Positions 2,506 to 24,623 of a stretch of 64,000 nucleotides of DNA are shown here, piece by piece. A program made the position numbers and the translations under genes. The DNA is from Cuniculiplasma divulgatum (GTDB lineage Archaea; Thermoplasmatota; Thermoplasmata; Thermoplasmatales; Thermoplasmataceae), in assembly GCA_031200235.1 (NCBI GenBank), contig CP133595.1, forward strand, positions 1,386,877 through 1,450,876, in the 5' to 3' direction. The notes beneath the pieces were generated by a model. The model searched no databases. It saw only the letters and a list, made by a program, of their open reading frames with translations, and was not told the DNA's origin. Numbering within the stretch: position 1 is the first letter of the stretch; each line of letters starts with the position of its first letter.

Positions 2506-6694
<4,189 letters not shown>

Positions 6695-22869: not shown

Positions 22870-22948
22870 ATTCTGCAATGGAATCGGACTATTTAACGGA
22901 ATTCAGTGCTTTATGCTGAAAGTAAATATAGACTATTAATCTATATTT

Positions 22949-23089
22949 TAATGCCCACGCATTAAATTCTCATTCTCCAGTAACGAAATGCCATGAGATC
23001 AAGGCAAACATTTAAATGCGGGCATGACAATTGTTGTAAGCTTAGGACAGGCAGAAACATGGTTGCCATGGTAGTATGCGGGCATGAAT
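22949..23089. promoter_or_regulatory. cluster of ATGC..GCAT palindromic and direct repeats upstream of the actin-like gene (candidate operator or centromere-like site)
   Basis: TAATGC-CCAC-GCATTA at 22949-22964. Exact 12-mers ATGCGGGCATGA at 23016-23027 and 23076-23087. Related ATGCCATGA at about 22988 and TGCCATGG at about 23064. Confidence 0.45.
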
Positions 23090-23135
23090 ATGCTCCTTGT
23101 TGCTATGGATTAATCCTGTTATGCTGAGTCTGTGA

Positions 23136-24134
23136 ATGAAAGGTGAGGGAAGATTGATAACAGTTGGTATCGACCTAGGATATGGTGACACGAAAGTCAT
23201 CGGAGTGGACGGCAAAAGAGAGAAGTTCCCGTCAAGATGGGCTGGAACTGAGGCTAAGAACTGGGGAATAGGGGGATCAACAACGATCCTTACCATAAAC
23301 GATGGTGAGCCATTCTTCTTTGGAGACAATGCCACGGGCGCAAACGTCAGGGAGCCCCAGGGAGATGGGAGACTTTCTGACCCGGACTCGTTGCCGCTTC
23401 TTGCCGGAGCCCTCTGGATGAGCGGAGCCGGAACAGACGGAAACCAGGCAGAAATAGTACTCGGAAGCGGAACCCCCCTGGGTACATTTGAACATGAACT
23501 CAATGCCGCGAAGGAATTTCTGGAAGGCAAGGAATTTGATATAAAGTCAGTATCCGGAGAGACCAGAAAATTCAAGCTTTCAAAACTGGTTATGAGACCA
23601 CAGGGAGTAGGGGCGGCACTTTATCTACTTGACCAGGGCCTGATTAAAACCCAGTACGGATACGGGGTTGTGGTGGATATCGGCTCAAGGACTACTGATG
23701 TCCTCACTGTTAACCTGAAGAACATGGAACCCGTTGTGGAAATGTCTTTCAGTATACAGGCAGGAGTCGGCGATCTTGTCTCAGGCATAAGCAAAGCAAT
23801 TGCCAAGGAGACAGGGTTCATCGTGCCAACCGATATAGCCAGGGAAGCCATTTCCCAGACAGTAGTATTCAAGCAGAGAGAAGTTGGAGGGCCAAAGGTA
23901 TCAGAGCCTCTTATGAACACTCTTGCCTCAAAGATCCTTGACAAGCTCAGGGAGAATCTCAGGGAAGAGCTTGACAGAATTACTGCGCTCATACCGGTTG
24001 GCGGAGGTTCAACACTCATAGGCCACAGGCTAGAGGCACTTGCGCCTGGCACCCTCATAAAAATACCAGCCGAGGATATCCAGTTTGCAAATGCTCTGGG
24101 ATACAGGGATGCAGCCAGCAGATCAGCGCAGTGA
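23136..24134 (+). CDS. actin-fold ATPase, ParM/Ta0583-like archaeal actin homologue
   Basis: 332 aa. Phosphate-1 GIDLGYGDTKVIG, GSGTPLG, DIGSRTTD, IPVGGGS. Close to my recollection of Thermoplasma Ta0583 (GYGDTKVIGVDGKR..FPSRWA). Confidence 0.85.
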   Translation: MKGEGRLITVGIDLGYGDTKVIGVDGKREKFPSRWAGTEAKNWGIGGSTTILTINDGEPFFFGDNATGANVREPQGDGRLSDPDSLPLLAGALWMSGAGTDGNQAEIVLGSGTPLGTFEHELNAAKEFLEGKEFDIKSVSGETRKFKLSKLVMRPQGVGAALYLLDQGLIKTQYGYGVVVDIGSRTTDVLTVNLKNMEPVVEMSFSIQAGVGDLVSGISKAIAKETGFIVPTDIAREAISQTVVFKQREVGGPKVSEPLMNTLASKILDKLRENLREELDRITALIPVGGGSTLIGHRLEALAPGTLIKIPAEDIQFANALGYRDAASRSAQ

Positions 24135-24141
24135 TTTTTTT
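24135..24141 (+). terminator. oligo-T tract after the actin-like gene
   Basis: T7 run immediately after the TGA stop. Confidence 0.4.
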
Positions 24142-24218
24142 GCTGCACAATTTCCCTGACAAATTATTTATTGTGGCTGGAGATGGGCACCATCCTTCTT
24201 CTATGAAAGGATGAGAAC

Positions 24219-24623
24219 ATGGCAGCCAGGAAAAAAAATGACAATGAAACTGAGGAGGAAGCGGACCTCAGTGAAACAATTATTAAGCTTGAAAAGGAAG
24301 ATATCTCCGCCATAAACCTTCTGAGGCAGCAGGGCGAATCCGCGTTGCAGGTTATACGCAGGGCATTGCAGGATTCACTTGAGTATGGAGTCATGAAAGA
24401 TATGCTCTCATCAATTGACGGGAGGATTACGGAACTATCCAACAAATACAAGACAAGCCAGTCCACAATTATTAATTTCAAATATGATGTGGACGACGGG
24501 CTCAGAGTACCAGAAGAGCTCAGGAAGGGGGAGGACAGGAATCAGAAGGTCACCAACCTGAAGCAGGCTCTGGAAAAAAAATGGTCCGAACTTGAGGAGA
24601 AAAAGGAGAAGAATAAACAATAA
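24219..24623 (+). CDS. ribbon-helix-helix DNA-binding protein with charged coiled-coil C-terminus (ParR-like architecture)
   Basis: 134 aa. TIIKLEKEDISAINLLRQQGESALQVIRRALQDSL reads as strand, helix, G-x-S turn, helix. The C-terminal 60 aa are K/E-rich heptad-like. A GATGG-GCA-CCATC palindrome (24182-24194) lies between TATA-like aaattatttatt and the ATG. Confidence 0.55.
   Translation: MAARKKNDNETEEEADLSETIIKLEKEDISAINLLRQQGESALQVIRRALQDSLEYGVMKDMLSSIDGRITELSNKYKTSQSTIINFKYDVDDGLRVPEELRKGEDRNQKVTNLKQALEKKWSELEEKKEKNKQ

Follow-up and report, generated by a model that had tools for sequence, protein, structure and literature searches.

A conserved ParR-like candidate partner encoded beside the Ta0583-family actin-like ATPase of Cuniculiplasma divulgatum

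Structural and biochemical work on Ta0583 of Thermoplasma acidophilum (PDB 2fsj/2fsk/2fsn) goes back to 2006, and the protein is cited as an orphan ParM-like archaeal actin, with its function, partner and cargo unassigned. Here, we describe a two-gene cassette of the acid-mine archaeon Cuniculiplasma divulgatum (assembly GCA_031200235.1, contig CP133595.1), in which the gene for a Ta0583-family ATPase is followed by a small gene whose product we call the partner. The cassette lies in a stretch of 64,000 nucleotides (positions 1,386,877 to 1,450,876 of the forward strand), which was analysed whole and is called the window; all coordinates below are counted within it. The original prediction, made from the sequence alone, had read the region as a chromosomal type II (ParMRC) DNA-segregation locus, composed of a repeat cluster serving as centromere (parC), an actin-like ATPase and a ribbon-helix-helix (RHH) adaptor, and every feature that it listed was found at its position. 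The ATPase and the partner very probably work together. We lean, if only slightly, towards reading the pair as a chromosomally domesticated module of the ParM/ParR type, in which the partner is an adaptor like ParR that binds DNA and docks on filaments. The genes and protein segments on which this reading turns are as follows.

23154-24134, + strand: gene for the Ta0583-family (ParM-like) actin-fold ATPase (PDB, Pfam, Ta0583 alignment, invariant TTGATA)
24219-24623, + strand: gene for the 134-aa partner protein, a ParR-like adaptor candidate, with homologues directly 3' of actin genes
24273-24392, + strand: N-terminal RHH-like domain of the partner, aa 19-58, ETIIKLEKEDISAINLLRQQGESALQVIRRALQDSLEY (AlphaFold2 (AF2) model, Foldseek, hhalign)
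24558-24593, + strand: C-terminal amphipathic motif L-K-x-x-L-E-x-K-W-x-E-L of the partner, aa 114-125, a candidate filament-docking helix

Results

The two genes are co-oriented on the + strand, with an actin-like open reading frame (ORF) of 332 aa (23136-24134) separated by a gap of 84 nt from the small ORF of 134 aa (24219-24623). Judged by its sequence, the ATPase is a member of the Ta0583/ParM actin-like family, as had been proposed from its actin fold, its likeness to Ta0583 and its phosphate-binding motifs GIDLGYGDTK, DIGSRTTD and PVGGGS. It matches the Ta0583 structure (PDB 2fsj) at E = 7e-135, with 61% identity over 325 residues, and more weakly a series of ParM structures at E = 1e-14 to 4e-4, among them those of pCBH (1e-14) and Dh-cParM1 (3e-5) and also 3js6. 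Pfam domains ALP_N (PF17989, 9e-32) and MreB-like_C (PF21522, 7e-46) are found above gathering scores, and the NCBIfam models PRTRC-D and ParM both match below cutoff. Two sequence signals frame the gene:

23142-23148, + strand: Shine-Dalgarno-like GGTGAGG, 5 nt 5' of TTG 23154
24135-24141, + strand: run of seven T right after the actin stop codon, a candidate archaeal terminator signal

The 332-aa frame of the original prediction is present, and the conserved start is TTG 23154 in place of its ATG 23136. The alignment to Ta0583 begins at 23154, the sequence TTGATA at that position is unchanged in 13/13 related loci of an upstream alignment, and it is preceded by GGTGAGG, presumably complementary to the 3' end of archaeal 16S rRNA; (A)GGTGA is kept at this position without being column-invariant. 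Because all three point to TTG 23154, the product is probably a protein of 326 aa.

Ta0583 is reported to polymerise into filaments, and horizontal transfer from bacterial ParM of plasmid origin has been proposed for its family (PMC2651865). Published accounts treat Ta0583 as a ParM-like or actin-like protein that stands alone (PMC2651865, PMC3160578, PMC4911067, PMC10354927). In line with the claim that Ta0583 is an orphan without an adaptor, the literature searched names no partner, DNA site or 'archaeal ParR' for it; the primary reports (Roeben 2006, Hara 2007) lie outside the coverage of that search, and an earlier mention of the downstream ORF in them is possible.

To follow the small gene among relatives, the ATPase alignment was scanned against one genome per GTDB species, yielding 65 loci (numbered with an L prefix below), and the partner was sought near each ATPase by tblastn and with a hidden Markov model profile of its N-terminal domain. 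In 38 archaeal loci of several unrelated flank types, the actin gene is followed immediately by a gene for a homologue of the small protein, which bears out the expectation that the small gene would be conserved beside Ta0583-like genes across Thermoplasmatales. Both ORFs are intact in 38/38 of these pairs, spanning family-level divergence, and outside the A-plasma clade the two genes overlap or are at most 21 bp apart. The set holds no T. acidophilum or T. volcanium locus, and two loci from metagenome-assembled genomes (MAGs) of Thermoplasma sp., L043 and L035, served for Ta0583. Their actins are 98.8% and 98.5% identical to Ta0583, respectively, and a 102-aa member of the partner family lies 7 bp downstream in each (at 5004-5309 in L043); therefore, the same kind of partner gene adjoins near-identical copies of Ta0583.

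The two proteins also diverge together. Pairwise identities of actin and partner correlate with r = 0.90 over 351 pairs, the partner being the faster-evolving of the two. Four Thermoplasmatales genomes carry two paralogous cassettes, each with its own partner (L040/L042, L031/L038, L034/L039 and L032/L041), and within these genomes identity between paralogues is 52-57% for the ATPases and 18-25% for the partners, which suggests from sequence that the paralogous cassettes are orthogonal cognate pairs. The partner family is tiny: 57 close homologues of the C. divulgatum protein were found, none of them named, and the protein itself is 100% identical to a hypothetical protein of 'Thermoplasmatales archaeon A-plasma'. 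When 1.84 billion cluster representatives were searched exhaustively with HMMER, 15 clusters were returned at E <= 1e-3, in which every named member is a 'hypothetical protein'. As separate observations on individual loci, a tRNA-like sequence was seen by eye, unconfirmed, just upstream of the actin gene in L023, and in L056 (a Thermogymnomonas acidicola draft) the matches to actin, PrpD and NAD kinase each come in two pieces, with the partner ORF intact; these splits may be draft-sequencing frameshifts or real pseudogenes.

In alignments, the partner consists of two conserved modules around a hypervariable linker, which cannot be aligned between clades. The N-terminal module runs from a hydrophobic strand-like segment through helix A and a G/N-E-S/T turn to helix B, which ends L-E-Y. 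Turns of the G/N-E-S/T type before helix B are typical of RHH DNA binders. The K/E-rich tail that the original prediction placed after the N-terminus is present, with a coiled-coil-like and variable linker between the modules, and it closes with the amphipathic motif. L118, E119 and W122 of this motif are invariant in 41 sequences and L114 is almost so; the stretch aa 107-133 is predicted to be helical, with L114, L118 and W122 on one face, and the motif is kept across clades although the linkers diverge beyond alignment.

An AF2 model of aa 15-64 (predicted local distance difference test (pLDDT) score 86) has an extended segment followed by helices 12-21 and 28-49. Foldseek was run with the N-domain alone, as the full-length model was diluted by its long helices. 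Thirteen PDB matches were returned, about ten of which are RHH or RHH-like as read from their PDB entries, with template modelling (TM) scores of 0.64-0.71 for these. One example is Mycobacterium tuberculosis ParD1 (8c24_E; TM 0.71, root-mean-square deviation 1.9 Å over 46 columns), and further RHH-like matches include Vibrio cholerae ParD2 (7b22), MazE-mt1, AtaR, SeqA-N and TCP domains. With hhalign, the profile of the N-domain was matched in register to residues 2-40 of the ParR of plasmid pCBH over 38 columns (P = 0.0017), covering strand, helix A, turn and helix B; the score of 19.8 was reached by 0/300 shuffles (maximum 17.1) and 0/109 real protein fragments (maximum 16.9). The plasmid homologues of pCBH ParR are all at least 85% identical and yielded no profile. 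Because the AF2 model, the Foldseek trend and the controlled profile match agree, the N-domain is likely of the RHH/ParR type as modelled. The RHH N-terminus of the original prediction is thus compatible with both the fold model and the pCBH ParR profile, and it lacks a match to curated RHH sequence models.

Several results weigh against a DNA-binding ParR-like partner. Every Foldseek match has E > 1, and the top match by probability is SeqA-N, in which the fold serves oligomerisation and not DNA binding. No match for the partner was obtained in Pfam, NCBIfam, PHROGs or a PDB phmmer search; no RHH family reached E <= 1 in Pfam for the window protein and ten relatives, and a PDB profile search returned no RHH protein (the designed-repeat proteins and Tfx that it did return were dismissed as matches of helix composition). 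This lack of a match says little, because the experimentally validated pCBH ParR likewise has no NCBIfam or PHROG match, and ParRs are known to have no signature motif (PMC12270681). The residues of the putative DNA-facing beta-strand are variable and often acidic, and the N-domain carries a net negative charge. No partner was detected in six archaeal actin loci, namely L020, L023 (Acidiplasma aeolicum), L024-L026 and L030 (Ferroplasma sp.). The results on repeats, on the Bacillota small proteins and on pSK41 ParR that are given below belong on the same side.

Some of these points would be met if the partner were a filament nucleator, capper, bundler or membrane tether without a specific DNA site, with its RHH-like domain used for dimerisation or oligomerisation. 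A cytoskeletal role of this kind would also account for the linkage, the co-divergence and the C-terminal motif, and it agrees with the variable, acidic strand residues, the SeqA-N match and the lack of centromere-like repeats at the cassette. A function in cell shape or organisation is plausible because Thermoplasmatales have no cell wall (PMC10354927). The cytoskeletal reading sits poorly with a profile that aligns in register with the DNA-binding domain at the N-terminus of pCBH ParR, with the conserved G/N-E-S/T turn, and with the conserved dyad elements in both promoter regions described next, and we regard it as rather unlikely.

The non-coding sequence 5' of the actin gene and between the two genes holds the following elements.

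22924-22948, no strand assigned: palindrome AAATATAGACTA / TAATCTATATTT with 12-nt arms, 92% complementary, in the divergent promoter region shared with prpD
22947-22966, no strand assigned: palindrome TTTAATGC-CCAC-GCATTAAA, with its right arm degenerate or the whole absent in relatives
22984-22996, + strand: box CGAAAT-GC-CATGA, about 14 nt 5' of the TATA-like box (26 nt from start to start)
23004-23017, + strand: transcription factor B recognition element (BRE)/TATA-like GCAAAC-ATTTAAAT, invariant or nearly so in 13 loci, the presumed actin promoter from its consensus
23016-23027, + strand: first exact 12-mer ATGCGGGCATGA, at the 3' edge of the TATA-like box and in the variable spacer
23025-23052, + strand: block TGACAATTGTTGTAAGCTTAGGACAGGC, which surrounds the presumed start of transcription and may be an operator or leader element
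23076-23087, + strand: second exact copy of the 12-mer ATGCGGGCATGA, within a leader of low conservation
24161-24172, + strand: TATA-like AAATTATTTATT, presumed own promoter of the small gene, with TTTAT(A) invariant in 13 A-plasma-clade loci
24182-24194, no strand assigned: dyad GATGG-GCA-CCATC, unique in the window, between the TATA-like box and the small gene
24191-24213, + strand: inverted repeat CATCCTT-N9-AAGGATG, overlapping the small gene's ribosome-binding region

Judged from sequence, the conserved ones among these look like promoter elements and could be candidate operators of the partner. Transcription starts are predicted near 23040 and 24195. The box at 22984-22996 overlaps one of the ATGC/CATG sites flagged in the original prediction. 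Its looser form, CGAA-N3-12-CATG on the gene strand 5' of actin, occurs in 11/31 loci from six groups of our own definition, several with differing flanks, as against 1.8% of background windows and 0/5 partner-less loci. CGAAAT-N-CATG(A/C) was also noticed 5' of the actin promoter in L027, L028, L038-L041 and L056, whose flanks are unrelated between groups. The consensus TTGaCAATTGnTGtnAGCTTGGAACAGA of the 23025-23052 block is found in most A-plasma-clade loci, with AAT 23029-23031 invariant in 13/13; L007, L009, L010 and L012 depart from it downstream of the AAT core.

Between the genes, the GATGG-GCA-CCATC site singled out in the original prediction is where it was placed and is conserved in part: among 13 loci, the inner A-T and T-A pairs are kept, and the outer G-C pairs are found in about half. 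In the adjoining inverted repeat, 98.9% of cells are paired across 13 loci, the sole changes being one-sided and wobble-compatible; ATCCTT and AGGATGA are invariant, and CATCCTT-N9-AAGGATG recurs in the distant L031. The RNA hairpin predicted there is unremarkable (z = -1.4) with no two-sided covariation, and no Rfam family was found at the locus; the repeat might act in translation as a hairpin or serve as an operator in the DNA. Farther upstream, the palindrome at 22924-22948, which reads AAATATAGAC..TCTATATTT in the window, is kept in L003, and palindromes TGTATCTTAGATACA or ATATGTATCT-T-AGATACATAT stand at the same place in L004, L008 and L009 (near 3760-3850). This palindrome may serve the prpD promoter, or prpD-methylisocitrate-lyase regulation, rather than the cassette.

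These elements at and around both presumed promoters, together with the RHH-like fold and the small gene's own TATA-like box in the A-plasma clade, are what one would expect if the partner were an RHH transcription factor for the actin gene and itself, with no contact to filaments. Such a regulator would leave unexplained the invariant amphipathic C-terminal motif beside a freely varying linker and the analogous motif of the Bacillota counterparts (below), and a plain repressor would have no need to follow the divergence of the ATPase so closely, down to the paralogous pairs. We think this role improbable.

The repeat cluster at 22949-23089 had been proposed as parC, and its parts are all in the sequence: a palindrome, two 12-mers 60 bp apart and two related sites. 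The palindrome core TAATGC-CCAC-GCATTA lies at 22949-22964 and extends to 8-nt arms at 22947-22954 and 22959-22966; the two ATGCGGGCATGA copies are exactly 60 bp apart with no other exact copy in the window, and the related sites are ATGCCATGA at 22988 and TTGCCATGG at 23063. An exact 12-nt direct repeat within 257 nt arose in 23/5000 first-order Markov simulations and in 9/1275 real 257-nt windows of the sequence, and the 12-mer pair is thus unusual locally, though nothing exceptional when 64 kb are scanned. A second exact pair, GGAAAAAAAATG at 24229-24240 and 24572-24583 inside the small gene, falls within the same 2.1 kb, which indicates that exact 12-mer pairs arise by chance at such a scale. 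Allowing one mismatch at most, GATGGNNNCCATC occurs once in the window, as against 3.9 expected, and further sites of this kind or of CGAAAT..CATGA are missing from the window or at chance level there.

On comparison of strains, the 12-mer pair and palindrome were rejected as a conserved centromere. The first 12-mer covers the 3' edge of the TATA-like part ATTTAAAT (23010-23017) and the variable spacer, and its central bases are altered in L022 (ATGTAGGCATGA), L001 (ATGTGAGCATGA) and L003, with the surrounding block otherwise invariant. In L022 the second copy is ACGCGGGCATGA, and L001, L002 and L003 carry degenerate versions of it; the right arm of the palindrome is GCATAT in L001 and L002, the whole being absent in L003. 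All of this variation is among strains whose small proteins are 87-97% identical. No direct-repeat family of at least three copies was found in nine orthologous upstream regions, no iteron array near the cassette in the window or in orthologous loci, and no tandem repeats near the locus. Short candidate iterons CATGG and TGGAAC, from k-mer enrichment upstream, were rejected: their signal is not independent evidence because it is dominated by the common ancestry of the loci.

A parC at 22949-23089, to which the small protein would bind cooperatively in the manner of R1 and pSK41, would have in its favour the local improbability of the 12-mer pair in the simulations, its uniqueness in the window and its canonical position 5' of parM. 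It would have to be built from two copies only, of which the first simply covers the TATA-to-start spacer and both mutate, like the palindrome, between close strains with invariant flanking bases, and nothing comparable is found in the orthologous loci. We consider such a parC, and with it the use of the flagged repeats as the partner's centromere, very improbable, and this part of the original prediction is not upheld.

The cassette is chromosomal and vertically inherited. Its Pfam-defined neighbours are NAD kinase, JAB, phosphoenolpyruvate (PEP) mutase/isocitrate lyase (ICL), PrpD and Bcp, and the gene order NAD kinase, JAB, PEP mutase/ICL, PrpD, actin, small gene, Bcp is common to the A-plasma clade, Oxyplasma and Thermogymnomonas. 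In E-plasma, Thermoplasma and other clades the flanks change and the pair of actin and small gene is retained. Contigs that carry the locus reach 2.0 Mb, and the plasmid or mobile-element location of type II systems is not found. Flank domains, flank synteny and a G+C content that stays flat over the cassette all agree with the housekeeping, non-plasmid setting that had been claimed for it.

Relatives in bacteria occupy a different setting. Ta0583-like ATPases with 36-47% identity occur in MAGs of acidophilic Bacillota (L046-L061), in up to five copies per MAG, and in 13 of these loci a protein of about 100 aa is encoded directly 3' of the ATPase. It has a hydrophobic, strand-like N-terminus (LQFRVSIG...LLRLAEAGL) and a C-terminal ...L-x-x-[RA]-[WFY]-G-D-D motif. 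The next gene encodes a type IV secretion system (T4SS) coupling protein in L048-L053 (Pfam T4SS-DNA_transf, 1e-42 in L050), and these loci are likely conjugative elements. The arrangement would fit a ParMR module carried on such elements, and also the published proposal that bacterial plasmids were the source of the archaeal genes (PMC2651865). Bacteria of acid environments are a plausible donor pool for archaeal genes. The archaeal partners and the Bacillota small proteins do not match significantly (hhalign E = 0.3); homology between them lacks statistical support, and the likeness is treated as an architectural analogy only. That the two C. divulgatum genes are chance neighbours, or the decaying and functionless remnant of an integrated plasmid, would suit the horizontal origin from bacterial ParM proposed for the Ta0583 family (PMC2651865) and the related cassettes on Bacillota conjugative elements, and is scarcely credible against ORFs intact in 38 paired loci across family-level divergence, conserved motifs, syntenic flanks and the lack of a G+C anomaly.

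Discussion

In the domesticated ParM/ParR-type module that we favour, the Ta0583-family ATPase would supply an actin-like filament. The N-domain of the partner would dimerise and probably bind DNA, and its C-terminal L-x3-L-E-x2-W helix would dock on the ATPase in the way that ParR uses its own C-terminal helix to dock on ParM. As a working model, the partner could couple a DNA site to growing filaments and nucleate or regulate them, and it probably also controls transcription of the cassette. If there is a nearby cis site, the elements at 22984-22996, 23025-23052, 24182-24194 and 24191-24213 would be better candidates than the 12-mer pair. A more ambitious form of this model, a resident chromosomal ParMR-type machine in which the RHH protein links Ta0583-type filaments to the nucleoid or to a site on the chromosome with no iteron-type centromere, is put forward as a tentative and less probable extension.

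A conserved, co-evolving small gene with the ParR layout gives Ta0583 a candidate partner, including beside its close orthologues. If the adaptor binds chromosomal DNA, the pair would be an actin-driven DNA-handling system in archaea, and a plasmid partition module domesticated on a chromosome, as the counterpart of the bacterial chromosomal ParMR cassettes described in 2025. Should the tethering of a chromosomal site also hold, it would be the first type II, actin-driven DNA-segregation or positioning system of an archaeal chromosome. Without DNA binding, the partner would be the first known accessory protein of an archaeal ParM-like cytoskeleton.

Among known partition systems, the pCBH ParMRC of Clostridium botulinum (PDB 6ixw/6izr) supplies both the ParM that matches the ATPase best among bacterial PDB entries and a ParR similar in plan to the partner. 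Both loci have parM before parR; the pCBH ParR has about 125 aa, an N-terminal strand-helix-helix in register with the partner N-domain, a coiled-coil-like middle and a C-terminal amphipathic KQAFLNGMKSF, to be compared with KQALEKKWSEL in the partner, and it shifts its parC in electrophoretic mobility shift assays (PMC6599009). The systems differ in that the 257-kb pCBH is a plasmid whose parC measures 130 bp, whereas the present cassette is chromosomal and archaeal with no recognisable repeat array, and full-length similarity between ParR and the archaeal partner is not significant.

In PMC4911067, the ParM of staphylococcal plasmid pSK41 is named as the protein structurally nearest to Ta0583. 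By eye, the LLKIKKEDY...GTKTAHIREALRRYIEE of pSK41 ParR, an RHH dimer (PDB 2q2k), resembles IIKLEKEDI...GESALQVIRRALQDSLEY of the partner, but hhalign gives a weak match of 12 columns (E = 0.037) and BLASTP nothing. The parC of pSK41 has several 20-bp repeats, and nothing like them occurs at this cassette. That of R1 has ten iterons flanking the promoter. The R1 ParMRC of Escherichia coli shares with the present pair the logic of an actin-like motor and a small adaptor, but it is plasmid-borne and bacterial, and the adaptors have no detectable sequence similarity. As cited in PMC6599009 (Gayathri 2012), the R1 adaptor is a small RHH protein that contacts ParM through its C-terminal helix.

So far, descriptions of chromosomal ParMR cassettes come from bacteria only (Dh-cParM1, Cb-cParM; PMC12270681; PDB 8x1i). 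Like the pair in C. divulgatum, they join a chromosomal ParM, that of Dh-cParM1 being among the matches of our ATPase, to adjacent, highly divergent ParR candidates found by context and predicted RHH fold. The present cassette differs in being archaeal, in its synteny over family-level divergence and in having a partner family of its own with a distinctive C-terminal motif. Nearest of all is Ta0583 itself, which belongs to the same protein family as the C. divulgatum ATPase over its full length and has the same Pfam domains.

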